DNA from: Candidatus Dojkabacteria bacterium
Lineage (GTDB): Bacteria > Patescibacteriota > Dojkabacteria > B142 > OLB20
Assembly: GCA_035444565.1 (NCBI GenBank)
Contig: DAOMOX010000001.1
Location: forward strand, 258,335-322,334
DNA: 64,000 bases
Direction: 5' to 3'
The first letter of the stretch is position 1, and each line of letters begins with the position of its first letter. The notes beneath the pieces are model-generated. The model ran no database searches. It worked only from the letters and a program-made list of their open reading frames with translations, and was not told where the DNA came from. Positions 1-61,531 of the stretch are shown here, piece after piece. The position numbers and the translations under genes are program-made.

Positions 1-147
1 AGAATTTTCGTGCGTAGGGGAGGACCAAATTATAAAAGAGGACTTGAATTCATGAAAAGTATAGCTGAGAAATATAATATTGAGATAACAGTACATGGTC
101 CCGAGATGTATATGACAGAGGTGGTCAAATTGGCACTAGAAACCTAA
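1..147 (+). CDS. aclB: ATP-citrate lyase small/beta subunit (ATP-grasp, succinyl-CoA-synthetase-beta-like), C-terminal fragment cut by window edge
   Basis: Frame-1 translation RIFVRRGGPNYKRGLEFMKSIAEKYNIEITVHGPEMYMTEVVKLALET* ends at 147. The 'FVRRGGPNY(Q/K)(E/R)GL...HV/HGxE' block matches the conserved C-terminus that precedes the CoA-ligase-alpha-like part of ACL (cf. eukaryotic ACLY 'IFVRRGGPNYQEGL'). aclA follows 18 bp downstream. Confidence 0.6.
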   Translation, partial: RIFVRRGGPNYKRGLEFMKSIAEKYNIEITVHGPEMYMTEVVKLALET

Positions 148-165
148 TAATTTATAAATTTAAAA

Positions 166-1977
166 ATGCAGGAACTATTTACGAAAAATACTAAAGTAAT
201 CTTTTATAATGAGCATCCGGTGCCTATTCAAGCAATGCTCGATTACGATTGGATTTGCGCAAAATCAGAACCATGTGTTTCTGCAATCGTAAACCCAAAG
301 AAATCGGGTTTCCATAAGACTTTTTTCGGACCAAAGGAGATACTCATACCAGTTTTCAAGATACTGGAAGAGGCCGTCCGATATGATTCAAAAGCAGATG
401 TGTTAATCAATTTTGCTTCAGTAAGAAGTAGTTTTGAGAGTACTAAAGTTGCGCTAGAAACTCCAAATATACGGACTGTGATTTTGGTAGCGGAAGGAAT
501 CCCCGAAAATCAGACCAGAGAACTTATTAGACTAGCCAAGGAAAACAAGAAATGGATAATAGGACCTTCAACAGTTGGAGCAATCAAAGCGGGTGCGATT
601 CGAGTAGGATATAGTGGTGGAAGTAGTGAAAACATCATCGAAAGCAAACTTTACCAACCTGGAAGTGTAGGAGTGGTGACAGTTTCAGGAGGAATGTCGA
701 ATGAGGTTTATAGCATAGTGAATAACAATACTGACGGTGTGAACGAAGGTGTGGCGATAGGAGGTGACACTTATCCTGGATCAACACTTTTAGAGAATGT
801 CATGAGATTACACGACAATCCTGAGATTAAAATGTTGGTAGTTTTAGGAGAAATCGGAGGCACTGACGAATACGAAATTGCAGATGCAATTAAATCAGGA
901 AAAATTAATAAGCCAGTTGTGGCATGGGTGAGTGGGACTGTTGCAGAATTATTCCCAACTGAAGTTCAATTTGGCCACGCAGGTGCGAGATCAGGTAGTC
1001 GTAAAGTATCAGCAGTAGCGAAGAACAAGGCACTTAAAGAAGCTGGGGCATTTGTTCCCAAATCATTCAATCAATTTGGTTATTTAATTAAAAAGGTTTT
1101 TGATGATGAAGTCCGAAAGAAAAAAGACTATATACTTCCTACTCAAGTAACTCCTCAAATCCCCGCGCTTGACTTTGATAGTGCAATTAGAGACGGATTA
1201 GTTAGGAGAAGTACTTCAATAATATCTGGAATCAGTGACGATAGAGGAGAGAAACTCTCTTACAATGGCGTTGATATTGATAAAATCGTTGATAAACCAT
1301 TATCTTTCACGATAAATGCACTTTGGTTTGAAAACCGACTGGATAAAACCGGGATGGATTTCCTAGAATTGTGCTTGAAACTAACTGCAGATCACGGACC
1401 AGCAGTTGTAACAGCACATAACGCAATTACTACAGCTAGAGCTGGTAAGGACTTGGTTTCTTCTGTAGTTTCTGGACTCTTAACAATTGGACCGAGACAT
1501 GGTGGAGCAATTAATGATGCAGCAAAATGGCAGTTCGAATGTATCACCAATCAAATTGATTCAGCAGATTTTGTAAAGGAGATGAATTCTAAAGGGGAAT
1601 TAATTATGGGAATAGGGCATAGAATCAAATCTATTCAAAATCCAGATGAGAGAGTTCAACTAATTAAGAAATTTGCTAAAAAAAATCTAAAACAGACAGA
1701 ACATTTGGAATTTGCTTTAGAAGTGGAGAACGAAACTACGAAGAAAAAGAACAACTTGATCCTGAATGTCGATGGAGCAATCGGAGCAGTTTTCTTGGAC
1801 ATTTTAAAGTCCAATAAATATGAGGATGAAGAAATTTTGGAACTGATTGAAATGGAATTGTTTAATGCGATATTTTTACTAGGTAGAACAATAGGAATCA
1901 TAGGACATGTATTAGACCAGAAAAGAATGAAGGAGCCGCTTTACAGGCACCCTTGGGACGATATTTTGTATAAGTAA
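166..1977 (+). CDS. aclA: ATP-citrate lyase large/alpha subunit (CoA-ligase-alpha-like domain fused to citrate-synthase-like domain)
   Basis: 603 aa. It carries blocks I recognise from ACLY: WGHKEILIPVFK-like 'FGPKEILIPVFK', VLINFAS, IGPSTVGAIK, SKLYQPGSV, SGGMSNE, DGVNEGVAIGGDTYPGSTL, VVLGEIGGTDEYE, VQFGHAGA (phospho-His loop), AVAKNKALKEAG, TADHGPAV, ARAGKDLVSS, GLLTIG. The citrate-synthase-like tail has GELIMGIGHRIKSIQNPD, NLILNVDG, GHVLDQKRMK, LYRHPWDDI. Confidence 0.8.
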   Translation: MQELFTKNTKVIFYNEHPVPIQAMLDYDWICAKSEPCVSAIVNPKKSGFHKTFFGPKEILIPVFKILEEAVRYDSKADVLINFASVRSSFESTKVALETPNIRTVILVAEGIPENQTRELIRLAKENKKWIIGPSTVGAIKAGAIRVGYSGGSSENIIESKLYQPGSVGVVTVSGGMSNEVYSIVNNNTDGVNEGVAIGGDTYPGSTLLENVMRLHDNPEIKMLVVLGEIGGTDEYEIADAIKSGKINKPVVAWVSGTVAELFPTEVQFGHAGARSGSRKVSAVAKNKALKEAGAFVPKSFNQFGYLIKKVFDDEVRKKKDYILPTQVTPQIPALDFDSAIRDGLVRRSTSIISGISDDRGEKLSYNGVDIDKIVDKPLSFTINALWFENRLDKTGMDFLELCLKLTADHGPAVVTAHNAITTARAGKDLVSSVVSGLLTIGPRHGGAINDAAKWQFECITNQIDSADFVKEMNSKGELIMGIGHRIKSIQNPDERVQLIKKFAKKNLKQTEHLEFALEVENETTKKKNNLILNVDGAIGAVFLDILKSNKYEDEEILELIEMELFNAIFLLGRTIGIIGHVLDQKRMKEPLYRHPWDDILYK

Positions 1978-2022: not shown

Positions 2023-3021
2023 ATGAACATACTATTAACAGGCGGAGCAGGGTATATCGGATCACATTGCACTTTAGAGTTGATAAAAAGAGGCCATAAA
2101 GTAACCGTACTGGACAATCTCGAGCGAGGTCACCAAGAAACACTAGATTCAATCAAGCAACAAGCAGGGGAGTTTGAATTTTTAAAACTCGACCTACGAA
2201 ACCTTACTGATCTTCGAAACGGATTGAGAGACAAGCAATTTGATGCAGTGATACACTTTGCCGCTTATATTGACGTAGGAGAATCAGTCAGAGAACCTGC
2301 AAAGTATTTTGAGAATAATGTAGTAGGTAGCCAATATTTATTCCAGATACTTTTAGAAAATAAAGTAAATAATGTAATTTTCTCTTCAAGTGCTGCAGTT
2401 TATGGGACACAAGAAATCGTTCCAATTCCAGAAACCGCAGAAAAGCATCCTGACAGCCCTTATGGGGAAACGAAGTTATTGATGGAAATGATTCTTGAAA
2501 ACTATTGCCAATATTCAGGTATGAACGCCGTGGCTTTGAGATATTTCAATCCATCTGGAGCAGAAGGGAACATAGGGGAGAGGCATTACCCAGAAACTCA
2601 TGCAGTTCCTCGAGTATTAAAAGCATTGATGGATGATAATTTCACATTCGGAGTTTTCGGAGATGACTATAATACTCCTGATGGTAGTTGTATCCGAGAC
2701 TTTATTCATATTCAAGACTTAGTAGATGCCCATATCGCCTGTATAGATTTTTTGAACAATAACAAAGGTTTCCATGCATTTAATGTAGCTACTGGTAAAG
2801 GCACAAGTGTTTTAGAGCTAATAAATACAGCAGAGGAGGTATCTGGTAGAAAATTAGACTACAAAATCCAACCAAGACGAGAAGGCGATCCAGCACAACT
2901 TGTTGCAGACCCCATAAAAATCAACTCAGAGATTGGCTGGAAAGCTAAATTTGATATCAAAGACATCCTCAAGTCAGCTTGGGAGTTCGAACAGAAACGC
3001 CCGGAGAGCGATTATCAGTGA
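2023..3021 (+). CDS. galE: UDP-glucose 4-epimerase (extended SDR)
   Basis: N-terminal MNILLTGGAGYIGSH Rossmann motif, SSSAAVYG, YGETK (YxxxK catalytic motif), 332 aa typical GalE length. Confidence 0.8.
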   Translation: MNILLTGGAGYIGSHCTLELIKRGHKVTVLDNLERGHQETLDSIKQQAGEFEFLKLDLRNLTDLRNGLRDKQFDAVIHFAAYIDVGESVREPAKYFENNVVGSQYLFQILLENKVNNVIFSSSAAVYGTQEIVPIPETAEKHPDSPYGETKLLMEMILENYCQYSGMNAVALRYFNPSGAEGNIGERHYPETHAVPRVLKALMDDNFTFGVFGDDYNTPDGSCIRDFIHIQDLVDAHIACIDFLNNNKGFHAFNVATGKGTSVLELINTAEEVSGRKLDYKIQPRREGDPAQLVADPIKINSEIGWKAKFDIKDILKSAWEFEQKRPESDYQ

Positions 3022-3042
3022 GGTAGTATCCTGGTTTAACAA

Positions 3043-3462
3043 GTAATCCCACCCCCGAAGTCATTCCGCGGTTTAACCGCGGAATCTCGTTCTTCCTATG
3101 GGTACGCTAGAGAAAGTATACGAGACTCCGTGCTTAAAGCACGGAGTGACGGCGAGTATGGCATTCCTAGGAAAATCCACCCCGAAGTCTTCCCGTGGTT
3201 TAACCACGGGAACCCGTTTTACCGATAAGCACGGAATTTCGTTCTTCCTATAAGTGCGCTTGAAAGATTATACGAGACTCCGCGATTAAATCGCGGAGTG
3301 ACGGCGAGTGGGGTATTCCAAGGAAATCCGACCTAGTGGTCGTTCCGCGGCTTGACTGCGGAACCTCGTTCTTCCTTTAGGTGCGCTTGAGAAAGTATAC
3401 GGGACTCCGTGGTCCCTCCCTTTCGGCAGGGCAAGCAAGCCACGGAGAGACTTCAGACAACT
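3043..3462 (+). repeat. Array 1 of a GC-rich composite palindromic intergenic repeat: about 3 tandem ~128-bp units, each with palindrome A (ATTCCGCGGTTTAACCGCGGAAT-type) and palindrome B (ACTCCGTGCTTAAAGCACGGAGT-type) joined by conserved linkers
   Basis: Read directly. Perfect 23-nt palindromes at 3064-3086 and 3125-3147. Variants at 3191-3211, 3277-3299 and 3341-3363. The last B copy at 3403-3447 carries a nested insert 'tccctccctttcggcagggcaagcaag'. The linkers 'tcgttcttcctat(a/g)ggtgcgcttgagaaagtatacgagactc' and 'gacggcgagtggggtattcc(t/a)aggaaatcc' recur. The array is GC-rich against the AT-rich flanks. Confidence 0.85.
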
Positions 3463-3671
3463 TAACCCCATACTTATCCACAATCGATACAAAAGTTTTA
3501 GCCCTATAGTTATCCACATTTGTTAACTTATCGTATCTTTTTCGTATCTCCCTTATTTGACTTATGCTGTGAAACAATTAAAGTGTATATCGAAAATTTA
3601 CCAAATATCGCCCTACTCTCGTTACAAAAATTCCAAAACTATGGTTTAATACAGGTATAGCTTTTTTCACT

Positions 3672-4754
3672 ATGAAAATAGGAATAGATTTATCCCCCGT
3701 AGAGAAAGATCCAGCCGGTATAGGCCAATATTCACTTAGCCTGTTCACTGAATTATGCAAGATTGATAAAAAGAACACATATATTGTTTACACCACTGCC
3801 CCATTTCTGTTCGCAAATACAAAAAACAAAGTAATCAAAGTAAATAAAAAACTACCTGCTTATGGAAGTCGATGGATGAAATCCGTTGCAGAAGATGCGA
3901 AAAAGGAAGAATTGGATTTGTTCATCTCCCCTTCTAATCATCTTTTCACAAAGCTATTTCCCAAAACTATCCAGTATGTCCACGATTTGGCACCTATAAA
4001 ATATCCGAAATTCTTCGGAAGGAGAGCCTCACTCAAATACAAAGCCACTCTTAAGCTTGCTACTTCAAAGGCTTTGCAGATTCTAACCATAAGCCAGTCA
4101 GTTAAAGATGAAATCGTTAATGCGTATCCGAAAACTAAGGGAAAGATTAACTACATTTATCCTGGTTTGAATAAATGGATTGAACTTGAGAACAAAGATC
4201 CTAATGCAATTATGGATAAATATGCCATTGATTATGACTACATTCTTACCTTGAGCACACTTGAACCTCGAAAGAACCATATTAATATGATTAAAGCATT
4301 CCATTTATTCAAAAAATCCACTAACTCACCACTGAAATTCGCAATTATTGGCAAGAAGGGTTGGTTCTTTGATGAGATTTTCAAAATCGTTGCAGACCTC
4401 AACCTAGAGACCGAGGTTAAGTTCCTAGGCTATGTACCTAATCAAGAACTCAACCCAATTATAAAGAAAGCAAAAGCATTTATGTTCATGAGCTTTTATG
4501 AAGGATTCGGTATTCCTCCCATCGAGGCATTAAGTCTAAATGTGAAAACACTTGTTTCCGATATCCCAATCTTCCATGAAGCTTTTCAGGACAAAGTCGT
4601 GTATACAGATCCCTATTCACCTGATAAAATAGCCCTTGCAATACAAAAGATCCTGGAACGAAATCACCAAAATACAGAGAAGTTCGTAGAGGATCGATAT
4701 AGCTGGGAAAAGTCAGCGCACAAACTATTATCGATTATTAATGAGTATAGATAA
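3672..4754 (+). CDS. Glycosyltransferase, GT4 family (GT-B fold)
   Basis: 360 aa. C-terminal 'FMFMSFYEGFGIPPIEALS' is the EX7E motif region typical of GT4 retaining glycosyltransferases. Confidence 0.75.
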   Translation: MKIGIDLSPVEKDPAGIGQYSLSLFTELCKIDKKNTYIVYTTAPFLFANTKNKVIKVNKKLPAYGSRWMKSVAEDAKKEELDLFISPSNHLFTKLFPKTIQYVHDLAPIKYPKFFGRRASLKYKATLKLATSKALQILTISQSVKDEIVNAYPKTKGKINYIYPGLNKWIELENKDPNAIMDKYAIDYDYILTLSTLEPRKNHINMIKAFHLFKKSTNSPLKFAIIGKKGWFFDEIFKIVADLNLETEVKFLGYVPNQELNPIIKKAKAFMFMSFYEGFGIPPIEALSLNVKTLVSDIPIFHEAFQDKVVYTDPYSPDKIALAIQKILERNHQNTEKFVEDRYSWEKSAHKLLSIINEYR

Positions 4755-5292
4755 AAAAATATTAAAACAGTTTACCAAAGACGCAATTCGGAACCCCCTC
4801 TCTGTTTTTAAATACAGCTTTTTTAGATATATATTAATCGGAGTTTTAACGGTATTTGTGGGATTTGGAATTTTTAATTTCATTTCACTTACATCTGATA
4901 TTCACGGAGGAGCTGCAAACTTCATAGCAACCTTAATTTCATTAATATTTAATTTTTCCATGTCATACGCCTGGACTTTCAAGGTTCAGGGTAAACAAAA
5001 GATTAGAAGTCTTACAAGATACTCTATTCTTGCAGCCTTTAATCTGAGTTTCGAGACATTTTCCATGTATGGTTTCATAGAGTTACTTGAGTCTAGATTA
5101 ATAGACTTTTTGTTAAAGAGTCCAAATGTTGTGAAATTTGCCGACTTCATATTGGTCGAAATGAGCTTCTACGAAGGAACCCAGGAAGGACTTATGCAGG
5201 CAATATTGCGAAACTTACTTAAAGTGATTGCGTTATTAATGATCATTTCTTGGAATTTTGTACTCTATAAGAGATGGGTTTTTAAGAGATAA
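4741..5292 (+). CDS. GtrA-family membrane protein (polysaccharide-synthesis flippase-associated small membrane protein)
   Basis: 183 aa with 4 predicted hydrophobic helices. C-terminus 'WNFVLYKRWVFK' resembles the GtrA family signature. Overlaps the upstream GT4 gene by 14 bp. Confidence 0.5.
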   Translation: MSIDKKILKQFTKDAIRNPLSVFKYSFFRYILIGVLTVFVGFGIFNFISLTSDIHGGAANFIATLISLIFNFSMSYAWTFKVQGKQKIRSLTRYSILAAFNLSFETFSMYGFIELLESRLIDFLLKSPNVVKFADFILVEMSFYEGTQEGLMQAILRNLLKVIALLMIISWNFVLYKRWVFKR

Positions 5293-5294
5293 CG

Positions 5295-5430
5295 ATACAT
5301 CTCGTAGTCATTCCGTGCTTTAAGCACGGAATCCCGATTTTCCTATAGGTGCGTTTGAGTGGGCTTACGAGACTCCGCGGTCCCTCCCTTCCGGCAGGGC
5401 AGGTAATCGCGGAGTGACAGATGGGGCCAA
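5295..5430 (+). repeat. Array 2 of the same composite palindromic repeat (one unit; the B palindrome carries the nested insert)
   Basis: Palindrome A variant attccgtgctttaagcacggaat at 5310-5332. Then the linker 'cccgattttcctataggtgcgtttgagtgggcttacgagactc'. The B palindrome is interrupted: actccgcgg-[tccctcccttccggcagggcaggtaa]-tcgcggagt at 5372-5415. Confidence 0.8.
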
Positions 5431-10751: not shown

Positions 10752-10764
10752 CATCGAAACCAGG

Positions 10765-11200
10765 AAAACCCCTCACTGCTGTCTCTCCGCGGCCTGACCG
10801 CGGAGTCCCGTATACTTTCTCAATCGCACTTGTAGGGAAAACGGGTTCCCGTGGTCAAGCCACGGGAAGACCTTGAGGTTGGGATGATTGTTAATGAACG
10901 GAATGACCTCGGTGATCGTTCTCTTGGGAATACCCCACTCGGCGTCTCTCCGCGGTTACCTGCCCTGCCGAAAAGGAGGGATCGCATAGTCTTGCATATC
11001 TTCCCAGACGCACTTGTTAGTAAAACGGGATTCCGTGCTTAAAGCACGGAATGACCTTGAAAATGGATTTCAAAGGAATACCCCACTCGGCGTCTCTCCG
11101 CGGTTTAACCGCGGAGTCCCGTATACTCTCCCGAACGTACCAATATGAATAACGGGATTCCGCGGTCAAACCGCGGAATGACCTCGAGGTTGGGATTTCC
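10765..11200 (-). repeat. Array 3 of the composite palindromic repeat (about 3 units, inverted orientation relative to array 1; one B copy carries the nested insert)
   Basis: Reverse complement of the array-1 unit. Palindromes at ~10783-10805, ~10846-10868, ~11028-11050, ~11094-11116, ~11160-11182. The insert-bearing copy is 'ctctccgcggttacctgccctgccgaaaaggagggatcgcatagtc' at ~10950-10995. It fills the whole rfbD-rfbB intergenic space. Confidence 0.85.
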
Positions 11201-13278: not shown

Positions 13279-13705
13279 GGCCGCGCTGTCTCTCCGCGGT
13301 TCAACCGCGGAGTCCCGTATGCCCTCTCGAACGCACCTATAGGAAAAACGGGATTCCGTGGTTAAACCACGGAATGACCGCGATGATGGCACCGTTAGGA
13401 ATACCCAACTCGGCGTCTCTCCGCGATTGCCTGCCCTGCCGAAAGAGAGGGGTCGCGGAGTCTCGTATACCCTCTTAATCGCACTTGTTGGGAAAACGAG
13501 ATTCCGCGGTTGAACCGCGGAATGACCTCGGAGTTAGTTTTCGATAGGAATACGCCCCCCGCTGTCTCTCCGCGGTTTAACCGCGGAGTCTCGTATACCC
13601 TCTTAATCGCACTTGATAGGAAAACGGGTTCCCGTGGTTAAACCACGGGAGGACCTCGAGGCTGGATTAGACCGGTTAAACCACGGAATGACTGTGAGCT
13701 GGATT
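13279..13705 (-). repeat. Array 4 of the composite palindromic repeat (about 3.5 units, inverted orientation; one B copy carries the nested insert)
   Basis: Palindromes tctccgcggttcaaccgcggagt, attccgtggttaaaccacggaat, attccgcggttgaaccgcggaat, tctccgcggtttaaccgcggagt and ttcccgtggttaaaccacggga, with the conserved linkers. Insert copy 'ctccgcgattgcctgccctgccgaaagagaggggtcgcggag' at ~13425-13466. A trailing partial 'ccggttaaaccacggaatgac' follows. Confidence 0.85.
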
Positions 13706-14717: not shown

Positions 14718-15605
14718 ATGAAAGGAATCATATTAGCCGGTGGAAAAGGCACTAGACTTAGCCCACTAACTTTGGCAACTAGTAAACAGTTAATGCCTGT
14801 TTACGATAAGCCGATGATATACTACCCACTCTCAACACTGATGCAAGCGAAGATTCAAGAGATTTTGATAATTTCCACACCGGAAGATTTACCTAGGTTC
14901 GAAAATCTACTTGGTGATGGTAGTGAATTGGGAATGAAATTCAGCTATAAAGAACAACTCGAAGCAAATGGTCTAGCACAAGCATTTGTATTAGGTGAGG
15001 AATTTATAGGATCGGACAAAGTTGCCTTGATTCTAGGAGATAATATTTTCTATGGTTCTACAATGGACGCTTCACTAATCGAACACACAGATCCTGATGG
15101 TGGTGTAGTTTTCGCTTATCACGTAAACGATGACGATGCTAGACGACTTGGTGTTATAGAATTCGATGAGGCTTTCAATGCCCTTTCAATCGAAGAAAAA
15201 CCAGCAGAACCAAAATCAAACTATGCTGTTCCTGGACTGTACTTCTATGACAATGAAGTTGTAAAAATCGCCAAATCACTTAAACCAAGTGCTAGAGGTG
15301 AATACGAAATCACTGATGTAAACAATGCTTACCTACAGAGAGGCAAATTAAAAGTAGGAGTTCTCGATCGTGGTACCGCTTGGCTAGACACTGGGACCTT
15401 CTCTTCTCTCATGCAAGCTGGTCAATTCGTACAAGTAATCGAAGAAAGACAAGGATTGAAAGTTGGTTGCATCGAAGAAATTGCTTTCAGGAATAAATTC
15501 ATTGATGCAAAACAACTTGAAAAACTCGCAGAGAAATATATGAAGAGTGGTTACGGCCAATACTTACTAGGAGTTATGGATGATAAGGTAAAAAATGGGG
15601 ATTAA
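14718..15605 (+). CDS. rfbA: Glucose-1-phosphate thymidylyltransferase
   Basis: 295 aa. '[36 protein letters not shown]' is the RmlA signature. 'LGDNIFYG' present. Confidence 0.9.
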
Positions 15606-16344
15606 AGATTATAGCTATAATATTCTCCAATACAGAGTAAAACAAATAATCAAAAGACTGCTCAAAGGTATGGATGAGCCGTTTCTTTGTATTATCACAC
15701 CAGTGTTTGATCCATGTCTTAAAAGTCTTAAAGGACTTATCGCAGATCTTCAATATCAAACTTATGAAAATTTCATCCATGTAAGTATTGCGAATGGTAA
15801 AGAGCCTAAAATTCACAATTTAATTGAACACGTCCGCATCAACGACAAGAGATTTGTGTATGATGAAATACCTTTTGATAATAGTTATAAAGATTCCGGT
15901 CTTGTGGAAAATTTACTAATTATTAATGGAAAGCGCAGGAATTTTGTAATGTCTAAGTATGATGCACTAATGTATCTAAATATTGGAGCTGACTTCAAAC
16001 TGACCGATAATCAGATTTTCGAGAAGTTACATAATACACATATGGAGACCAGAAAAGATATTATCATTCTGGAATCAGAAGTTGCGGAGAAAAAATATCC
16101 CCTTTATCCAATTAACAAACATCGCCATATCGATCTTACAAATTTCTGCTACTCAAAGAAACTGGCTCGAACAATTCCCTATCCTGAAGATATTGACCCA
16201 GAATTTGATGTAGCAAACGACTTTAGATATTTTGATAAAATTGCGAATTTCAAAGTTCTAGAAGGCATTTATGGTCAAAAAGATGGAAGAAATTTCTATA
16301 AAACAATCGAAGACATTTATAATGAGCAACACACCAAAAAATAG
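15595..16344 (+). CDS. Hypothetical protein (possible degenerate GT2-like or nucleotide-sugar-binding fold)
   Basis: 249-aa ORF overlapping rfbA's end. '[11 protein letters not shown]' resembles a GT2 N-terminal strand but no DxD motif is clear. Confidence 0.35.
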
Positions 16345-16963
16345 CTGGACAATATTTGGATTAAGCAACTTCTCATACGACATTTTAGATGCTATCGAAT
16401 CAAACGGAGACGAGGTTAAATATTTCATCAGAAATCAAGATGTGGATGAAAAGATTGTCAATCGGGTGCCACAAAATATCGAAATCATAGATTTAACAGA
16501 CTTCAAGCCCAGTACAGACAAGTACTTCATTGGATTTATGGATTATAGAAAAGATGCTTTGCTCAGTGAATTGTTGAAATTTAATTTGCGTTTCGACAAT
16601 ATATTTCATAAAAACTCATACATTTCTCACTACTCCACAATTGGATTTGGTAATTTCATCGGAGCAAATGCTACTATTGCTCCCAAAGTTGCATTAGGTG
16701 ACTTTAACTTCATAAATCGAAATTGTTCAGTTGGGCATCATACTGTTATTGGAAATAGAAACAAGACTGGACCGGGAGTAACAATTTGTAGCTTGTGTGA
16801 AATCGAGGATAACAATGCTTTTGGAGCAAATTGCACAATAATTCCTGAACTCAAAATCGCTTCAGAAGTGGAAATTGGCGCAGGTGCCGTGTTGACTGAG
16901 AATATTTCCGAAAGTGGTTTGTATGTAGGAATACCTGCGAAATTAGTTCAAAGAAAGGCCTAA
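16322..16963 (+). CDS. Hexapeptide-repeat sugar N/O-acetyltransferase (NeuD/PglD-like left-handed beta-helix)
   Basis: The ORF track begins at 16271. The internal Met at 16322 (MSNTPKN) is the likelier start and overlaps the upstream stop. The C-terminal half shows hexapeptide repeats: 'GANATIAPKVALGDFNFINRNCSVGHHTVIGN..GPGVTICSLCEIEDNNAFGANCTII..EVEIGAGAVL'. Confidence 0.75.
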   Translation: MSNTPKNSWTIFGLSNFSYDILDAIESNGDEVKYFIRNQDVDEKIVNRVPQNIEIIDLTDFKPSTDKYFIGFMDYRKDALLSELLKFNLRFDNIFHKNSYISHYSTIGFGNFIGANATIAPKVALGDFNFINRNCSVGHHTVIGNRNKTGPGVTICSLCEIEDNNAFGANCTIIPELKIASEVEIGAGAVLTENISESGLYVGIPAKLVQRKA

Positions 16964-17791
16964 ACGTACTCTAGTTTCCTCAATTGTAGATATTTTCAAA
17001 TCCATTAATTCTATGATCTTATTAATCCTCTCAAGCTGACTTTTGTTTGTTGCCAGTTCTTCTTTCTCTTGATTGAGATAAATATTGTCTTCTAAACCAA
17101 GTCTCACTCCTCCTCCCATTGTCAAACCCATTACATTTGCGCGAAGTTGGAATCTCCCCAGTCCAGCAAATGCCCAATGTGCATTTTTTGGAAGAAGATT
17201 TAACAACGCTGAAATATTTGTGACCTCAAGTGGTGCAGTCCCAAGATTTCCGAGGAAAATATTAAAATATGGATTTTCGTCCTTAATCATTCCTCGTTCG
17301 AGCATAAAGTTAGCTTTATGAATCATACCTGGTTCAAATATCTCAAATTCTGGCTTAATACCGTTATTTTGCATGGTAGTCGCTAATTTCTCAATCATTT
17401 CGGGAGAATTCATAGATGCGGTATTGATAAAATTCATAGAACCCATCGTCAAAGTGGCCATATCTGGCTTGATATCACCATCAAGTTCAAGCACCTCTGC
17501 TCTTTTCTCAAATTCCGACCAATTTCTTCCACTAGTACTCACGGTGATAATCACTGTGGGCTGTTTATATCGAATCCGCTTGATGATTTCTGCATAAATT
17601 TCTTTTTTCCATGTTGGTTTGCCGGATTTATCTCTAGCATGCACATGTACGATACTCGCTCCATATTTAACAGCCATATCTACATCTTCTGCAATCTCCT
17701 GAGGGGTAAGGGGAACTGATTGATTCAGTTCCTTTGTGGGGATCATGCCGGTGAGAGCGCAGTTGATGATTACTTTATCGGTTGTTTTCAT
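16943..17791 (-). CDS. BKACE-family enzyme (beta-keto acid cleavage enzyme / 3-keto-5-aminohexanoate cleavage enzyme-like, DUF849)
   Basis: 282 aa. 'KVIINCALTGMIPTK...PLTPQEIAEDV..GASIVHVHARD' matches the N-terminal TIM-barrel signature of Kce/BKACE proteins. Confidence 0.7.
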   Translation of the reverse strand: MKTTDKVIINCALTGMIPTKELNQSVPLTPQEIAEDVDMAVKYGASIVHVHARDKSGKPTWKKEIYAEIIKRIRYKQPTVIITVSTSGRNWSEFEKRAEVLELDGDIKPDMATLTMGSMNFINTASMNSPEMIEKLATTMQNNGIKPEFEIFEPGMIHKANFMLERGMIKDENPYFNIFLGNLGTAPLEVTNISALLNLLPKNAHWAFAGLGRFQLRANVMGLTMGGGVRLGLEDNIYLNQEKEELATNKSQLERINKIIELMDLKISTIEETRVRLGLSLN

Positions 17792-50296: not shown

Positions 50297-53200
50297 ATGT
50301 TCAAACCCGTCAATCCAAAGCAAAATTTCCCTGAACTAGAGGGAGAAATTACAAAATTTTGGAAAGAAAATAAAATTTTTGAAAAATCTGTTGAAAATAG
50401 AAGTGCAAAGAACAGTTATATTTTCTATGACGGGCCTCCATTTATCACAGGTACTCCTCATTACGGTTCTCTACTTCCAAGTATAGCGAAAGACGTAATC
50501 CCTAGATATCAAACCATGCGAGGTAAAAGAGTCGAAAGAGTTTGGGGTTGGGATTGTCATGGATTACCAATTGAAAATAAAGTTGAGAAAAAACTAGGTA
50601 TTAAAAACAGACGTGAAATTGAAAAATATGGAATCGACAGGTTTATTGACGAATGTTACAACTACACCCGCGAAACTTCTGCAGAATGGAAATGGTACAT
50701 AGATAAAATCGGAAGATGGGTCGATATGGATAATGCATACAGGACCATGGACCAAGACTACATGGAAACTGTTATGTGGGTGTTCAAACAACTCCATGAA
50801 AAGGATTTGATTTACAAAGGAATGCGCACCTCACTTTATTGTACTCGCTGTGGAACACCTGTATCGAACTTTGAAATCGCTATGGATAACTCCTATGCAG
50901 ACATGGAAGATCCTGCGGTCACCATAAAGTTCCCAGTAACTACTCCCGGTGAATTCTCAGACAGCTCAATATTAGCTTGGACTACTACTCCATGGACACT
51001 CCCATCAAACAAAGCATTGGTGATTGATCCTGAGGAAACGTACATAAAAGCAAAAGTACAAAAACTCACTATTGAACTCGAACAAAGCTGGCAAGTGAAG
51101 GAATTACCAGAGAATCTAAAGAAATTAAAAAGGTCCGAAATCACACAGGCATACCTGGAAGACTATATTGATGAAAATGGGATAAAACCAAGAGACGCTC
51201 GTATTAGAAGGATTGATAGTAAATTTGAATTCACAACGAAATATTATGCTGGGAAATCTACCGAAACTGGACAATTAATTGAAAAAACCAAAGAAATCAC
51301 AAAAGAAGAATATATAGAGCTTATAAAACAAACAAAAGCAAAAGTAGTCAAAACCAGATACTACTACCCCCTTGAAGACGGATTAACAGCGGAGATTGAT
51401 GTGTATAGAAACCAACATGAAGGTGTAAATTTCGTAGAGGTGGAATTCAGTTCACTTAAGAAATTACAGAACTTCAAAAAGCCAGAATGGTTTGGAAAAG
51501 AAGTCACGGATTGTGACGCATGTTTCCCTAAATACATGGCAGATAAAAGCAGTGAACGAATCCTATCAGAAATAGATACTTACGTTCAGGCAGAACATAA
51601 TTACGAAGAAAATGTTCAAACTGATAACGTAATCCTCGCAAAAAAACGAGCAGAATACGCATTAGAGAACATTGATTATGAAATCGTAGAAGAATTTGAA
51701 GGAAAAAAATTATTAGGTTTGAAATACCGACCTCCTTTTGATTATTACAAAACCGAAAAAGGCGAACATCAAGTTTATGGTTTCCCTGGAATGGTTCACA
51801 TGGAAGAAGGAACAGGAATCGTTCATAGTGCCCCTGGATTTGGAGATATTGATACAGAGATGGGCCAGGAATATGGATTATCTATTGCGATGACCATTAA
51901 CGATGAAGGTAAATACTTACCACAAGTGAAAGACTTTGTAGGTTTGTATGTCAAAGATGCCGATCAACCAATTATTGAAAACCTCAAATCGAGAGACATA
52001 TTATTTAAAGTTGAGAAAATTGTTCACAGATACCCCTACTGCTGGCGTTGCGAAACTCCGCTAATTCACAAAGCCCAACCATCTTGGTTCATTGATATTG
52101 AAAAAATTCGCAAAGATTTATTGAAAAATAATGAAGACATCAACTGGGTACCAAAGCATCTAAAACATGGAAGATTTAAGAAGGGAATCGAAGTTGCACC
52201 TGACTGGGGAATTTCTAGAACTAGATATTGGGCAACACCAATGCCAGTCTGGCAAAGAGAAGAAGAAGGTCAAATCTTAGAAACAAAAGTTATCGGGAGT
52301 AGAGATGAACTTCGTGAACATGCAAACCAACCAATCACAAAAATCACATTCGTAAGACATGGTAATAAATCTCAAGATGATAGTCTAGACCCGGGAATGA
52401 CCGACTTGGGACATCAACAAGCAAAAGAACTAGCAAAAAAACTTTCGAAAGAGAAATTTGATGTAATAATCTCATCCCCAAAAAAAAGAACGCTTCAAAC
52501 AGCAGAATATATCAAAGAAGCTTTGGGTCAAGAATTCATAGAAGACAATTTATTTACTTCTCTCACAGATGGCGACGGTAGAGAGTTTTACAGACAAATA
52601 AAAAAACAACACAATGTCGAATATCTTCACGAACTTCCAGAAAGCATTTTGAGAGAGAAAATATTCCCTGTACTCACTCCATTAAAAGAAAACTTTGAGC
52701 AATTGTTGAAAAAATTCGAAGGTAAAAACATATTAATAATTTCGCATTCAGGGAAAATCAAATTCTTGGAACACATTATCGAAGGTTCAAACCTTAGAGC
52801 AGTTTTGACTTCAAAAATTAAAGAAGCCGGAACATACACGGCATATTTTCATGGAACCGATTTATTAGATTTACACAGACCCAAAATAGACCAAATTACG
52901 CTGAAGGGTAAAACTGGAGAATTGACGAGGGTGAAAGAGGTTCTAGACGTATGGATGGATAGTGCCTCTATGCCTTATGCTTCAAAGCACTACCCTTTCG
53001 AGAACAAACAAATGCTAGAAGAAAATTATCCAGCTGATTTTATTGTTGAATATATTGCACAAACTAGGGCATGGTTCTATGTGATGCATGTGATTTCAAC
53101 AGCATTATTGAATCAACCCTCGTTTAAAAATGTCATAACTACAGGGGTGATTTTTGGAACTGACGGTAGAAAAATGAGCAAAAGCTATGGAAATTATCCC

Positions 53201-54307
53201 GATCCTCGAGACGTACTTGAAAATTATGGTGCAGAAACATTAAGAATGTATTTGATGGGTTCCAAGATTATGCTTGGAGAGGATATGAATTTTGACGAGG
53301 ATGCACTTAAAGAGCAATACAAAACTTTCCTTCTACCACTTTGGAATAGCTATTCATTCTTTGTCACATACGCAAACATCCATAACTGGGAACCTAGTGG
53401 GAAGTTAGATTCAAAAGATCAACTTGATAAATGGATAGTCGCAAAACTTGATGAGACTAAGAGTCACTTCATCAAAGCCATGGATTCCTATAATATCCCC
53501 TCAGCAGTAAAATTACTTCCAGAGTTTATCGACATATTATCAAGATGGTATATCAGAAGATCACGCAGTAGGTTTGCGCAAGGATCGGAAGATGCTTTAA
53601 GTACGTTACACTACATCTTGGTTGAATTTACAAAGTTGTCCGCATCAGTAGTTCCATTTGTTTCAGAAGAGATATTCCAAAATCTACAAAATGACAATCA
53701 ATTTGAATCTGTGCATTTATCTGATCTTGAAAAACCAAAGAAATCAACTTTAGAAAACAATGCTTCGTTATTACAAAAGATGGAATTAGTTAGAGAGATT
53801 TCGACACTAGGTCAATCATTGCGGGTACAAAACAATCTCAAAGTTAGACAACCATTACAGAGTGTTGAGATTTATTTACAGGATAAAAATCTTGCAACTG
53901 AGGGAGATATGGGTTGGATGAATGAAATCGTAAAAGACGAACTCAATGTGAAGCAAGTTAAGTTCGTAAACAAAAAGCCTGAAAATGAACTTCTCGTCAG
54001 CTCGGGTCTAAATGACACCCTATTCGTCGGATTGGACTCTAAACTAACACCCGAATTGGAGGCAGAGGGAATTCTTCGTGAGCTTACAAGACAGATTCAG
54101 AGCCAAAGGAAAAAGTTAGGATTGAATATGGGTGACAAAATTGATTTAACAATTCAAACTGATGACAAGAAACTTGATGGAATAATCAAAAAGAATCAAA
54201 AAGGATTTGCTGAATCAGTAAATGCTACAAACATCCATTTCACTACAGCGAATCTGGAACACAAATTATCTATCAACGGTTCAGAACTAACCCTATCTCT
54301 TAGTTAG
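50297..54307 (+). CDS. ileS: Isoleucyl-tRNA synthetase (eukaryote/archaeal-like type) carrying two inserted domains: a CYTH/triphosphate-tunnel-like domain in the editing (CP1) region and a histidine-phosphatase (PGAM/SixA-like, RHG) domain before the KMSKS half
   Basis: 1336 aa. Class-I motifs 'PPFITGTPHYGS' (HIGH variant) and 'KMSKSYGN'. Editing-domain motifs 'TTTPWTLPSNKALVIDPEE' and 'EEGTGIVHSAPGFG'. Anticodon-binding region intact. The insert at aa ~255-447 (nt ~51059-51637) shows 'IELEQSWQVKELPENL...EITQAYLED..ARIRRI..TTKYY..KVVKTRYYYPLEDGLTAEIDVYRNQHEGVNFVEVEF'. The insert at aa ~678-855 (nt ~52328-52861) shows 'ITFVRHGNKSQDDSLDPGMTDLGHQQAKELA..FDVIISSPKKRTLQTAEYI..ILIISHSGKIKFL'. Confidence 0.9.
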   Translation: MFKPVNPKQNFPELEGEITKFWKENKIFEKSVENRSAKNSYIFYDGPPFITGTPHYGSLLPSIAKDVIPRYQTMRGKRVERVWGWDCHGLPIENKVEKKLGIKNRREIEKYGIDRFIDECYNYTRETSAEWKWYIDKIGRWVDMDNAYRTMDQDYMETVMWVFKQLHEKDLIYKGMRTSLYCTRCGTPVSNFEIAMDNSYADMEDPAVTIKFPVTTPGEFSDSSILAWTTTPWTLPSNKALVIDPEETYIKAKVQKLTIELEQSWQVKELPENLKKLKRSEITQAYLEDYIDENGIKPRDARIRRIDSKFEFTTKYYAGKSTETGQLIEKTKEITKEEYIELIKQTKAKVVKTRYYYPLEDGLTAEIDVYRNQHEGVNFVEVEFSSLKKLQNFKKPEWFGKEVTDCDACFPKYMADKSSERILSEIDTYVQAEHNYEENVQTDNVILAKKRAEYALENIDYEIVEEFEGKKLLGLKYRPPFDYYKTEKGEHQVYGFPGMVHMEEGTGIVHSAPGFGDIDTEMGQEYGLSIAMTINDEGKYLPQVKDFVGLYVKDADQPIIENLKSRDILFKVEKIVHRYPYCWRCETPLIHKAQPSWFIDIEKIRKDLLKNNEDINWVPKHLKHGRFKKGIEVAPDWGISRTRYWATPMPVWQREEEGQILETKVIGSRDELREHANQPITKITFVRHGNKSQDDSLDPGMTDLGHQQAKELAKKLSKEKFDVIISSPKKRTLQTAEYIKEALGQEFIEDNLFTSLTDGDGREFYRQIKKQHNVEYLHELPESILREKIFPVLTPLKENFEQLLKKFEGKNILIISHSGKIKFLEHIIEGSNLRAVLTSKIKEAGTYTAYFHGTDLLDLHRPKIDQITLKGKTGELTRVKEVLDVWMDSASMPYASKHYPFENKQMLEENYPADFIVEYIAQTRAWFYVMHVISTALLNQPSFKNVITTGVIFGTDGRKMSKSYGNYPDPRDVLENYGAETLRMYLMGSKIMLGEDMNFDEDALKEQYKTFLLPLWNSYSFFVTYANIHNWEPSGKLDSKDQLDKWIVAKLDETKSHFIKAMDSYNIPSAVKLLPEFIDILSRWYIRRSRSRFAQGSEDALSTLHYILVEFTKLSASVVPFVSEEIFQNLQNDNQFESVHLSDLEKPKKSTLENNASLLQKMELVREISTLGQSLRVQNNLKVRQPLQSVEIYLQDKNLATEGDMGWMNEIVKDELNVKQVKFVNKKPENELLVSSGLNDTLFVGLDSKLTPELEAEGILRELTRQIQSQRKKLGLNMGDKIDLTIQTDDKKLDGIIKKNQKGFAESVNATNIHFTTANLEHKLSINGSELTLSLS

Positions 54308-60529: not shown

Positions 60530-61531
60530 ATGTCGATTAAAGATAGAAAGTTACAACATATCAAAATTGTCTTAGAGAAGGATACGCAGCCGTATCCTTC
60601 TTCTTTTGACAAATATATTCTACCCCACAAATCACTTCCAGAAATCGACTTAAAAGAAATCGACACCACAGTCAAATTCTTCGACAAAGAAATTTCGTTT
60701 CCATTTATGATTGCATCGATGACTGGTGGTGAAGAATTTGGAAAAACAATTAACACCAATCTTGCCATTGCTGCAGAAAAAAACAGAATTCCGCTCGCAC
60801 TCGGATCGATGAGAGTCATATTGAAGAAACCAGAATCACTGGACAGCTTTAATGTGCGCCACCTTTGCCCTTCTGTTCCGTTGTTCGCAAATATGGGTTT
60901 GGTACAGTTAAATTATGGGTATGGAGCAAAAGAAATTAACAAGTTAATCGATATGATTGAAGCTGATGGGATATTTTTACACATAAATCATCTCCAAGAA
61001 GCGATTCAACCAGAAGGTGACACTAACTTCAAAGGACTGATTGATAAACTTGCGAAGATTCTACCCAAGATCAAAAAACCTGTTCTTATCAAAGAAGTTG
61101 GCAACGGAATTGACAAAGAAACAGCTAAAAGACTCAGCGAGATTGGTATCAAATGGATCGATGTCTCAGGTGGCGGTGGAACTAGTTGGCCTTGGGTAGA
61201 AGGCTATCGTCGAGATGATGACCTTGGAGACATATTCAAAACTGAGTCAATTCCCACAGATAAGTGCTTAATCGATTGTGGGGAAATTGAAGATCTAAAC
61301 TTGATAGCTTGTGGAGGAATACGAAATGGCAAACATATAGCACTAAGTGTGATGTTGGGAGCAGATATGGCATCTTGTGCTAAGCCATTACTTCAACCTG
61401 CGTTAGTAAGCCCAGAAGCTTGTACGAAATTGATAGAAAAATATAAAAAAGAATTTCAAATCAGCATGTTCACTGTAGGTGCAAAGGGAGTTGAAGAACT
61501 AAAAGAAATCCAGCCGAAGCTTAATGCTTAG
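60530..61531 (+). CDS. fni: Isopentenyl-diphosphate delta-isomerase, type 2 (FMN-dependent)
   Basis: 333 aa. 'RKLQHIKIVL', 'FPFMIASMTGGEEFGKTINTNLAIAAEKNRIPLALGSMRV' matches the IDI-2 MTGG...IN..LA..A...GSQ block. Glycine-rich 'VSGGGGTSW' FMN/phosphate region. Confidence 0.7.
   Translation: MSIKDRKLQHIKIVLEKDTQPYPSSFDKYILPHKSLPEIDLKEIDTTVKFFDKEISFPFMIASMTGGEEFGKTINTNLAIAAEKNRIPLALGSMRVILKKPESLDSFNVRHLCPSVPLFANMGLVQLNYGYGAKEINKLIDMIEADGIFLHINHLQEAIQPEGDTNFKGLIDKLAKILPKIKKPVLIKEVGNGIDKETAKRLSEIGIKWIDVSGGGGTSWPWVEGYRRDDDLGDIFKTESIPTDKCLIDCGEIEDLNLIACGGIRNGKHIALSVMLGADMASCAKPLLQPALVSPEACTKLIEKYKKEFQISMFTVGAKGVEELKEIQPKLNA

Follow-up and report, generated by a model that had tools for sequence, protein, structure and literature searches.

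ATP-citrate lyase (ACL) has been described in several architectures. The enzyme of Methanosaeta (Methanothrix) concilii is encoded by two genes, ACLY-A and ACLY-B (PDB 6hxi, 6znw), human ACLY is a single chain (PDB 6hxh, 6poe), and the AclB/AclA enzyme of Chlorobium limicola (PDB 6hxj) serves an autotrophic reductive tricarboxylic acid (rTCA) cycle. Homologous ATP-grasp, CoA-ligase and citryl-CoA lyase (CCL) modules are also found in succinyl-CoA synthetase (SCS) and in the citryl-CoA synthetase (CCS) and CCL of Hydrogenobacter thermophilus (PDB 6hxq, 6hxp). In metagenome-assembled genomes (MAGs) of Patescibacteria, or candidate phyla radiation (CPR), aclAB has been reported as an orphan ACL unaccompanied by other rTCA genes (PMC9671151, citing Probst et al. 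2017; PMC12577380, where aclAB is enriched in Saccharimonadia MAGs). Here we analyze an aclB-aclA pair (aclBA) at the start of a 64,000-nucleotide stretch of a Candidatus Dojkabacteria genome (contig DAOMOX010000001.1, positions 258,335 to 322,334 of the forward strand; the window hereafter means this whole stretch). The pair encodes a complete and conserved two-subunit ACL of the M. concilii kind, stands among cell-envelope sugar genes rather than beside aconitase and isocitrate dehydrogenase (IDH), and probably serves to cleave scavenged citrate for biosynthesis. The two genes are placed as follows.

1-147, + strand: 3' end of aclB (ACL beta subunit), last 48 codons plus stop, assigned by translation and a Pfam Citrate_bind match.
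166-1977, + strand: aclA (ACL alpha subunit), 603 aa, with a CoA-binding/CoA-ligase half fused to a citryl-CoA-lyase (citrate-synthase-like) half.

The frame 1 translation of positions 1-144 is RIFVRRGGPNYKRGLEFMKSIAEKYNIEITVHGPEMYMTEVVKLALET, followed by a stop codon at 145-147, and it matches profile positions 130-176 of the 177 in Citrate_bind (PF16114; E = 2.4e-14, Pfam). The whole of AclB (426 aa) is encoded on this contig by a gene that begins just ahead of the window (L001:8702-9982; L numbers denote the loci compared here), and it carries the domains PF08442 (ATP-grasp_2), PF24948 (Citrate_synth_N) and PF16114. The aclA start follows the aclB stop after 18 nt. AclA contains the motifs EVQFGHAGA (H271), GIGHRIKSIQNPD (H485, R486) and LYRHPWDDI, and Pfam detects Ligase_CoA (PF00549) at residues 173-295 (60 bits) and Citrate_synt (PF00285) at residues 385-594 (98 bits). 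An initial annotation, made from the letters of the window, had read within 1-1977 an upstream AclB fragment ending with FVRRGGPNY and an AclA with these motifs, and translation and Pfam bear out both.

In PDB sequence searches, AclA aligned end to end and without large gaps with residues 491-1093 of human ACLY (650 bits, E = 2e-194), and it scored 632 bits against M. concilii ACLY-B and 329 bits against C. limicola AclA. The scores were at most 97 bits against the SCS alpha subunit, 79 bits against the CCS small subunit, 61 bits against CCL and 45 bits against citrate synthase. Likewise, AclB scored 346 bits against M. concilii ACLY-A (over residues 1-425), 281 bits against residues 1-419 of human ACLY and 140 bits against Chlorobium AclB, compared with 72 bits against the CCS large subunit. 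With NCBIfam, the SCS alpha, CCL and citrate synthase models all scored AclA far under their cut-offs. An SCS or CCS identity was rejected on these scores (650, 632 and 329 bits to ACLs versus at most 97 bits to SCS and CCS), and the grouping with SCS or CCS that the initial annotation had named as a test was not found. A split CCS/CCL system was rejected as well, since the synthetase-type and lyase modules are fused in one 603-aa open reading frame (ORF). Judged by a beta subunit with ATP-grasp and citrate-binding domains, a fused alpha subunit, the active-site residues described below and ACL as the closest family, aclB and aclA are a genuine, complete two-subunit ACL (EC 2.3.3.8), as first proposed from the motifs. 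The predicted reaction of AclBA is citrate + ATP + CoA <-> acetyl-CoA + oxaloacetate + ADP + Pi.

Set against the described systems, the Dojkabacteria enzyme shares with M. concilii ACL its two-gene architecture, the end-to-end alignment of both subunits and the catalytic residues, at an identity of only about 53-55%. With human ACLY it shares the phospho-His loop, the citrate-binding loop and the CCL active site, AclB corresponding to residues 1-419 and AclA to residues 491-1093 (51% identical for AclA); unlike the human chain, it consists of two polypeptides, has no counterpart of the regulatory linker (human 420-490) and has His in place of Phe935. Reaction, subunit organization and domain order are those of the Chlorobium enzyme, which is nevertheless distant (329 bits for AclA, 140 bits for AclB). 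The modules are homologous to those of H. thermophilus CCS and CCL and of SCS, at scores of only 61-97 bits, and the lyase that is separate in H. thermophilus is here fused to alpha.

The public records of this AclA (HRN85901.1, HRP50942.1) are named “citrate/2-methylcitrate synthase” by NCBI, and JGI calls relatives “succinyl-CoA synthetase alpha subunit/citrate synthase.” The NCBI name is a misnomer because it is drawn from the C-terminal domain alone. Under such names, ACL is easily overlooked or mislabelled in automated metabolic surveys of MAGs.

Key AclA residues were checked in a 98-sequence alignment that includes 16 Dojkabacteria-clade sequences; the functional roles of the AclA and AclB active-site residues, including the GHAGA phospho-His, are presumed from human ACLY, ACLY-citrate structures and SCS. 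The window AclA keeps the equivalents of human E599, H760, H900, H975, R976, D1026, R1065 and R1085, and these eight are invariant in the 16 Dojkabacteria-clade sequences with a single exception, a Lys in place of the R976 equivalent in one sequence. The phospho-His H271 (human H760) of EVQFGHAGA is invariant in all 98 aligned sequences, and the CCL active site is represented by H410, H485, R486 and D536 (human H900, H975, R976 and D1026). The AclB equivalents of the ATP-grasp residues (human K58, R66, E118, N203 and D216) and of the citrate-site residues (human G309, N346, F347, T348 and R379) are all conserved. Four of them, G315, N351, T353 and R384 (human G309, N346, T348 and R379), do not vary among 7 AclB sequences of the Dojkabacteria clade and 73 from elsewhere, and R384, the counterpart of the citrate-binding R379, lies in FVRRGGPNY, inside window positions 1-147. 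Compared with an 89%-identical relative (L086), the ratio of nonsynonymous to synonymous substitution rates (dN/dS) is 0.035 for aclA and 0.047 for aclB, with dS close to saturation. By these ratios, aclBA is under strong purifying selection, and judged from residue conservation together with dN/dS, it encodes a catalytically intact and presumably working enzyme.

At four AclA positions, 16/16 Dojkabacteria-clade sequences share one residue, and it is not the one that >90% of the 81 other ACLs have.

N211: human equivalent H700, usual residue in other ACLs H.
A385: human equivalent L875, usual residue in other ACLs L.
T416: human equivalent G906, usual residue in other ACLs G.
H445: human equivalent F935, usual residue in other ACLs F.

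All four distinguish the Dojkabacteria enzyme from that of M. concilii. H445 is located in the motif GPRHGGA and is His in 16/16 Dojkabacteria-clade AclA sequences, in contrast to Phe in 81/81 other ACLs. The ACL motif otherwise reads G(D/P)RFGGA, and citrate synthases have GPLHGGA, as was checked on PDB citrate synthases. In citrate synthase, the His of GPLHGGA contacts substrate carboxylates. The H445 change could bear on substrate affinity or reaction direction.

The host genome is that of a Candidatus Dojkabacteria (CPR/Patescibacteria), and aclBA is native to it. The 216-kb contig that bears the two genes (ENA ERZ773355 NODE_6) also holds genes for IleRS, Lgt, Fmt, ParA/ParB, RNase Y and RecA, and further housekeeping genes for signal peptidases, PNPase and MurJ. 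The identical AclA protein has been deposited as Candidatus Dojkabacteria (HRN85901.1, HRP50942.1), in agreement with the reduced, CPR-like host that had been supposed, and is also encoded on a 620-kb contig. A near-identical partial AclA (97% over the first 162 residues) occurs in the same gene order on a 4.7-kb activated-sludge contig, and a metagenome scan with the single protein added two loci only. At least four independently assembled contigs, derived from different samples, show this aclBA gene order. The GC content of the aclBA segment is 0.364 against 0.360 for the contig, and its tetranucleotide correlation with the contig (0.950) equals the median of all 3.1-kb contig chunks. One could instead suppose that aclBA is foreign, whether by contamination from a eukaryote or an archaeon, by chimeric assembly or by horizontal transfer in very recent times, given that the nearest structurally characterized homologs are human and archaeal. 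This is extremely improbable in view of the independent assemblies, the contiguity with bacterial housekeeping genes, a composition typical of the contig, and 16 clade members that are 56-94% identical, monophyletic (100/100) and conserved in their flanks. The shared contig, the matching composition and the flanks conserved in relatives refute contamination or misbinning, the check for which the initial annotation had called.

A protein search with AclA found about 35 clusters at 56-94% identity, in which the organism-labelled matches are all Dojkabacteria (P0006, P0031, P0049), and a large further set at 52-56%. A scan of GTDB species representatives gave three Dojkabacteria at 57-62% identity, and the matches that follow lie at 50-56%. 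The latter come from the bacteria Syntrophobacter, Syntrophaceae, Anaerolineae, Bipolaricaulota, Elusimicrobia and one Peribacteria (CPR), and from archaea including many Thermoplasmata, Micrarchaeota, Bathyarchaeia, Methanosarcinales and the Asgard groups Promethearchaeia, Thorarchaeota and Odinarchaeota. In a neighbor-joining (NJ) tree of AclA (600 trimmed columns, Kimura distances, 100 bootstraps, midpoint-rooted without outgroup), the 16 Dojkabacteria-clade sequences form one clade in 100/100 bootstraps, with deep internal branches (distances up to 0.64). Because the tree has no outgroup, no donor lineage is named. The Peribacteria ACL is placed outside the Dojkabacteria clade and not as its sister, and its locus has an IDH gene nearby, which suggests that the two CPR groups have separate ACL histories. 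On this tree and these identities, Dojkabacteria AclBA belongs to a broad ACL clade, the M. concilii/eukaryote type, which anaerobic heterotrophs commonly possess, and Dojkabacteria gained ACL once, long ago, at or before the base of their ACL clade, and then retained it.

These relationships modify three earlier assumptions. The label “eukaryote-like” holds only insofar as the clade is nearer to eukaryotic ACLY than the Chlorobium type is; however, human ACLY (51%) is not the nearest neighbor of AclA, archaeal and bacterial homologs being 53-56% identical, and AclB scores higher against M. concilii than against human (346 versus 281 bits), so that the enzyme is not specifically nearer to eukaryotes than to archaea or bacteria. 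The view of ACL as a hallmark of rTCA autotrophs and eukaryotes is outdated, as many archaea and bacteria that are anaerobic heterotrophs carry this type. Horizontal acquisition, also proposed at first, would have to be ancient (at the clade base or earlier), and a recent event disagrees with tree depth and composition.

A group of proteins in the AclA search (P0017-P0029, about 1004-1040 aa) shows an internal partial duplication: after a full AclA come an additional, partial CoA-ligase half and an additional CCL module. Active-site motifs are canonical in the second CCL copy but degenerate in the first (ADRDPQASG, GIGHCTYSVENPD); owing to the two copies, the scores of these proteins exceed their identity level. 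Human ACLY adjoins P0017-P0029 in the NJ tree, a placement that we neither trust nor interpret.

Flanking ORFs of 76 non-Dojkabacteria loci were clustered and the recurrent families annotated. At about 64 of the 76, aconitase (about 645 aa) and/or IDH is encoded beside aclBA on the same strand, the IDH being either an Iso_dh-type enzyme of about 400 aa or a monomeric one of about 745 aa. Most often the genes run acn-(icd)-aclB-aclA-(icd) (e.g., L017:3666-6786 and L022:4687-12090, among loci L009-L085), and the cluster occurs in Thermoplasmata, Asgard archaea, Micrarchaeota, Bathyarchaeia, Syntrophia, Anaerolineae and Bipolaricaulota. This recurrence suggests that acn-aclBA-icd is a conserved three-enzyme module leading from acetyl-CoA and oxaloacetate to 2-oxoglutarate in anaerobic heterotrophs. 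No manC or galE match was found in the 76 loci. At one Micrarchaeota locus (L080:2561-5734, + strand), aconitase (residues 7-573) and an Iso_dh-type IDH (residues 673-1054) are joined in a single uninterrupted 1058-aa ORF directly upstream of aclBA, possibly a natural fusion or an assembly or frameshift artifact.

The Dojkabacteria neighborhood differs from this arrangement. Here, the order on one strand is manC, aclB, aclA, galE, with spacings of 49, 18 and 45 nt, respectively. The manC product (355 aa) has NTP_transferase and ManC beta-helix domains and scores 199 bits with TIGR01479, under the cut-off. The genes that follow aclA begin with these three.

2023-3021, + strand: galE (UDP-glucose 4-epimerase), TIGR01179 383 bits, over the 262 cut-off.
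3672-4754, + strand: GT4 glycosyltransferase (Pfam), conserved in the cluster after aclBA-galE.
4741-5292, + strand: GtrA-family membrane protein (Pfam), a conserved member of the envelope glycopolymer cluster.

Further downstream lie a double-GT4 gene, GT2 and RmlC/RmlD/RmlB-like genes, and the locus also has a UDP-glucose dehydrogenase gene; the adjacent cell-wall polysaccharide locus seen in the initial annotation is thus present, and the aclBA block heads what is a rhamnose-type envelope glycopolymer locus. A terminator scan of the + strand placed the first terminator-like hairpin only after galE. A promoter scan gave 16 matches, versus 21.8 in shuffled controls, and no promoter was called. 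Spacing, strand and terminator scan together make manC-aclB-aclA-galE an operon-like block.

This context was compared among 12 distinct Dojkabacteria loci with AclA 56-97% identical to that of the window (L001, L086-L088, L006-L008, L090-L094; L002 was left out of the count, as it repeats the window's own sequence). In 12/12, manC lies upstream of aclB, directly or with no more than about 1.5 kb between them; the exceptions to direct adjacency are one extra gene in L094 and gaps of 1.0-1.5 kb in L007 and L008. In 9/12, galE and GT4 lie downstream of aclA. Aconitase or IDH beside aclBA was found in 0/12. The Dojkabacteria ACL is therefore detached from its citrate/isocitrate/2-oxoglutarate partners and is fixed at the head of an envelope cluster instead. 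The one Methanosarcinales locus sampled (L030) showed neither sugar-nucleotide/glycosyltransferase genes nor aconitase/IDH. Upstream of manC, six Dojkabacteria loci have ApbE and a conserved 250-273 aa protein without family match, with three additional genes between ApbE and manC in L094. In one subclade, a HAD-IA family phosphatase gene lies between aclB and aclA (L088:9346-9993, L007:6415-7017, L008:2840-3478); it is PpaX/phosphoglycolate-phosphatase-like, with all models under cut-off.

Gene context also bears on autotrophic CO2 fixation by an rTCA cycle, which ACL, its classical marker, could be taken to indicate; that status is the sole point in favor. The approximately 95 kb of the 216-kb contig that was read yielded neither 2-oxoglutarate:ferredoxin oxidoreductase nor fumarate reductase, aconitase or IDH, and none of these enzymes is encoded at the 12 Dojkabacteria loci. 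CPR genomes, including WS6/Dojkabacteria, have no complete TCA cycle or respiratory chain (PMC5113843), the aclAB-bearing Patescibacteria mentioned above were likewise reported without the other rTCA genes (PMC9671151), and AclA is far from the Chlorobium-type rTCA enzyme (329 bits versus 650 bits to human ACLY). CO2 fixation is thus close to refuted.

Since the organism would have no TCA cycle, ACL most likely works alone. We favor a stand-alone cleavage of scavenged citrate that supplies acetyl-CoA and oxaloacetate for anabolism, with a probability of roughly 0.55; the role is in any case probably one of citrate cleavage and not of CO2 fixation. Under this explanation, citrate would be imported from a host or the surroundings and split by AclBA into acetyl-CoA and oxaloacetate. 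The acetyl-CoA could be used for N/O-acetylation of envelope sugars, or could enter a mevalonate route to undecaprenyl-phosphate, the carrier needed by the glycosyltransferase pathways of the locus. Such a role outside the TCA cycle, from citrate to biosynthetic acetyl-CoA, would be a bacterial parallel to that of eukaryotic cytosolic ACLY. In a closed WS6 genome, only the conversion of 3-phosphoglycerate to pyruvate and on to acetate with ATP was found, and the upper part of glycolysis, gluconeogenesis as well as the pentose-phosphate route are missing (PMC5113843). Mevalonate pathway enzymes are present in Dojkabacteria (PMC6107057). Enzymes in the window that may consume acetyl-CoA, or mark a pathway that does, are the following.

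16271-16963, + strand: NeuD/PglB/VioB-family sugar N-acetyltransferase, TIGR03570 136.5 bits, under the 160.8 cut-off.
16943-17791, - strand: Kce-like BKACE (3-keto-5-aminohexanoate-cleavage-enzyme-like), PF05853; NF052387 253 bits, under the cut-off.
60530-61531, + strand: type-2 isopentenyl-diphosphate isomerase, TIGR02151 359 bits, over the 281 cut-off.

The first two had been predicted downstream of ACL as acetyl-CoA-using enzymes, and both are there. The NeuD-family enzyme is a candidate consumer, as is BKACE, for which acetyl-CoA would be a co-substrate; the isomerase marks mevalonate-type isoprenoid synthesis, a large sink for acetyl-CoA, and each may be linked to ACL in this way. The BKACE block was met only in the window, the loci of relatives stopping short of its position or holding other genes there. 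The conserved partners of aclBA are manC and galE/GT4, and BKACE is only a candidate partner.

Several observations weigh against anabolic citrate cleavage. ACL is freely reversible (PMC12137691, citing Guynn & Veech 1973 and Moller et al. 1987). A citrate transporter was not identified in the approximately 95 kb read, and aconitase, IDH or citrate synthase could be encoded outside it. The formation of acetate and ATP from pyruvate in WS6 implies another source of acetyl-CoA, so ACL need not be the sole supplier (PMC5113843). The clade-specific F-to-H change could equally mean a tuning for citrate synthesis, and conserved gene order alone is no proof of co-transcription or of a functional tie to envelope synthesis.

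In a different explanation, ACL would chiefly catalyze synthesis (acetyl-CoA + oxaloacetate + ADP + Pi -> citrate + ATP + CoA). It would then be a citrate synthase that conserves ATP, serving substrate-level phosphorylation or providing citrate for 2-oxoglutarate/glutamate synthesis or export. Oxidative use of a reversible ACL for ATP synthesis is described for Desulfobacter postgatei (PMC12137691), acetyl-CoA is reported to form from pyruvate in WS6 en route to acetate (PMC5113843), and the clustering of aclBA with aconitase and IDH in most relatives fits a branch from citrate to 2-oxoglutarate. The citrate-synthase-type His, found in 16/16 Dojkabacteria-clade AclA sequences versus Phe in 81/81 others, points the same way. 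However, it is precisely aconitase and IDH that are found next to aclBA in 0/12 Dojkabacteria loci, CPR genomes are reported without a TCA cycle (PMC5113843), acetate formation already yields ATP from acetyl-CoA without costing oxaloacetate, and an oxaloacetate-forming carboxylase was not seen in the stretch of contig read. On balance, we regard a mainly synthetic role as rather unlikely.

Citrate cleavage could, alternatively, be catabolic, with imported citrate split chiefly for energy and biosynthesis secondary. Acetyl-CoA would then be converted to acetate with ATP, and oxaloacetate to pyruvate, acetyl-CoA and acetate with ATP, for a net yield of about 1 ATP per citrate. The pyruvate-to-acetate fermentation with ATP formation is encoded in WS6 genomes (PMC5113843), and the reaction would run in the same direction as under the explanation we favor, by an enzyme intact by its residues. 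Yet the conserved neighbors are sugar-nucleotide and glycosyltransferase genes instead of genes for transport, decarboxylation or fermentation, and neither a citrate carrier nor an oxaloacetate decarboxylase was seen nearby. Known citrate fermenters, moreover, rely on the ATP-independent citrate lyase CitDEF. Such a fermentation is accordingly quite unlikely.

Anabolic cleavage, the explanation preferred here, can also be put in a stronger form, in which the Dojkabacteria ACL would be a dedicated anabolic module of the cell-envelope program, co-transcribed with manC and galE, fed by host citrate and adapted by the H445 change. Host citrate would provide acetyl-CoA for N-acetyl sugars and for mevalonate-derived undecaprenyl-phosphate, plus oxaloacetate, and in regaining the citrate-synthase His (the F935H equivalent) the clade would have adapted the enzyme to the stand-alone role. 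In its entirety, this remains a doubtful proposal. If true, the module would be a prokaryotic analog of the eukaryotic shuttle from citrate to cytosolic acetyl-CoA and would couple the envelope growth of an episymbiont to the TCA-cycle output of its host.

The remainder of the window contains other features. A dispersed family of intergenic repeats has 10 copies, at 3050-3470 (+), 5301-5418 (+), 10763-11192 (-) and 13284-13664 (-). The unit is about 130-150 nt long, GC-richer than the genome and often present as three in tandem. It contains two inverted hairpins about 45 nt apart, ATTCCGYGG-TTTAA-CCRCGGAAT and CTCCGCGG-TTAAA-CCGCGGAG, and some copies have a nested CCCTCCCTTTCGGCAGGG insert in either hairpin loop. 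In the stems, 94% of cells are paired, and 20 cells with double changes were observed versus 5.7 expected, a value reached in 0/500 shuffles; by this covariation, the stems are maintained by compensatory changes. The 89% relative has copies too, in the same syntenic gaps (L086:12899-13161, 15561-15769); more distant Dojkabacteria loci yielded none, nor did the window outside its polysaccharide part. The GC bumps at 2-4 kb and 10-14 kb are explained by these repeats, which had no Rfam match, and a riboswitch reading of the copies after galE was rejected, as copies stand in both orientations relative to flanking genes; in form, the repeats look REP/BIME- or MITE-like. No RNA gene was found in the window (Rfam gathering threshold, ARAGORN), nor in the gap at 2950-3720 around the 3050 region (Rfam E <= 1), so that the taxonomy draws on no rRNA or tRNA.

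Two further observations concern proteins. IleRS (50297-54307, + strand) is unusually long (1336 aa) and has a His_Phos_1 domain, that is, a phosphoglycerate-mutase-like histidine phosphatase domain, inserted between the tRNA-synt_1 halves. On the contig past the window end, beyond RecA (L089:1-3677), two Pel9A-like beta-helix proteins of about 700 aa are encoded, one with CBM60. They are candidate secreted pectate/polysaccharide lyases, which fits the reported link of Dojkabacteria to carbohydrate degradation (PMC7038595).

Because ACL in CPR genomes without an rTCA cycle has already been published, the gene itself is not new in kind. The CPR reports do not give a Dojkabacteria phylogeny, residue analysis or gene context, and in the literature searched no description was found of the monophyly of Dojkabacteria ACL, its manC-aclBA(-galE) context, the loss of aconitase/IDH or the F-to-H signature. 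The conserved context and the citrate-synthase-like F-to-H change are modestly new. The results correct the habit of taking aclAB as a marker of the rTCA cycle and autotrophy in metagenomes, and they correct the database label on AclA. The usual association of the archaeal/eukaryote-type ACL with aconitase and IDH bears on its use by anaerobic heterotrophs and on discussions of how eukaryotic ACLY arose.

The usual view of CPR bacteria is that hosts or neighbors supply the metabolites they live on. With an ACL that is intact, strongly conserved and apparently stand-alone, citrate becomes a possible carbon currency for import throughout a CPR class; otherwise, the enzyme points to an unusual ATP-conserving step in that whole class. 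The fixed place of aclBA among envelope-sugar genes offers a testable link between central carbon supply and cell-surface synthesis.

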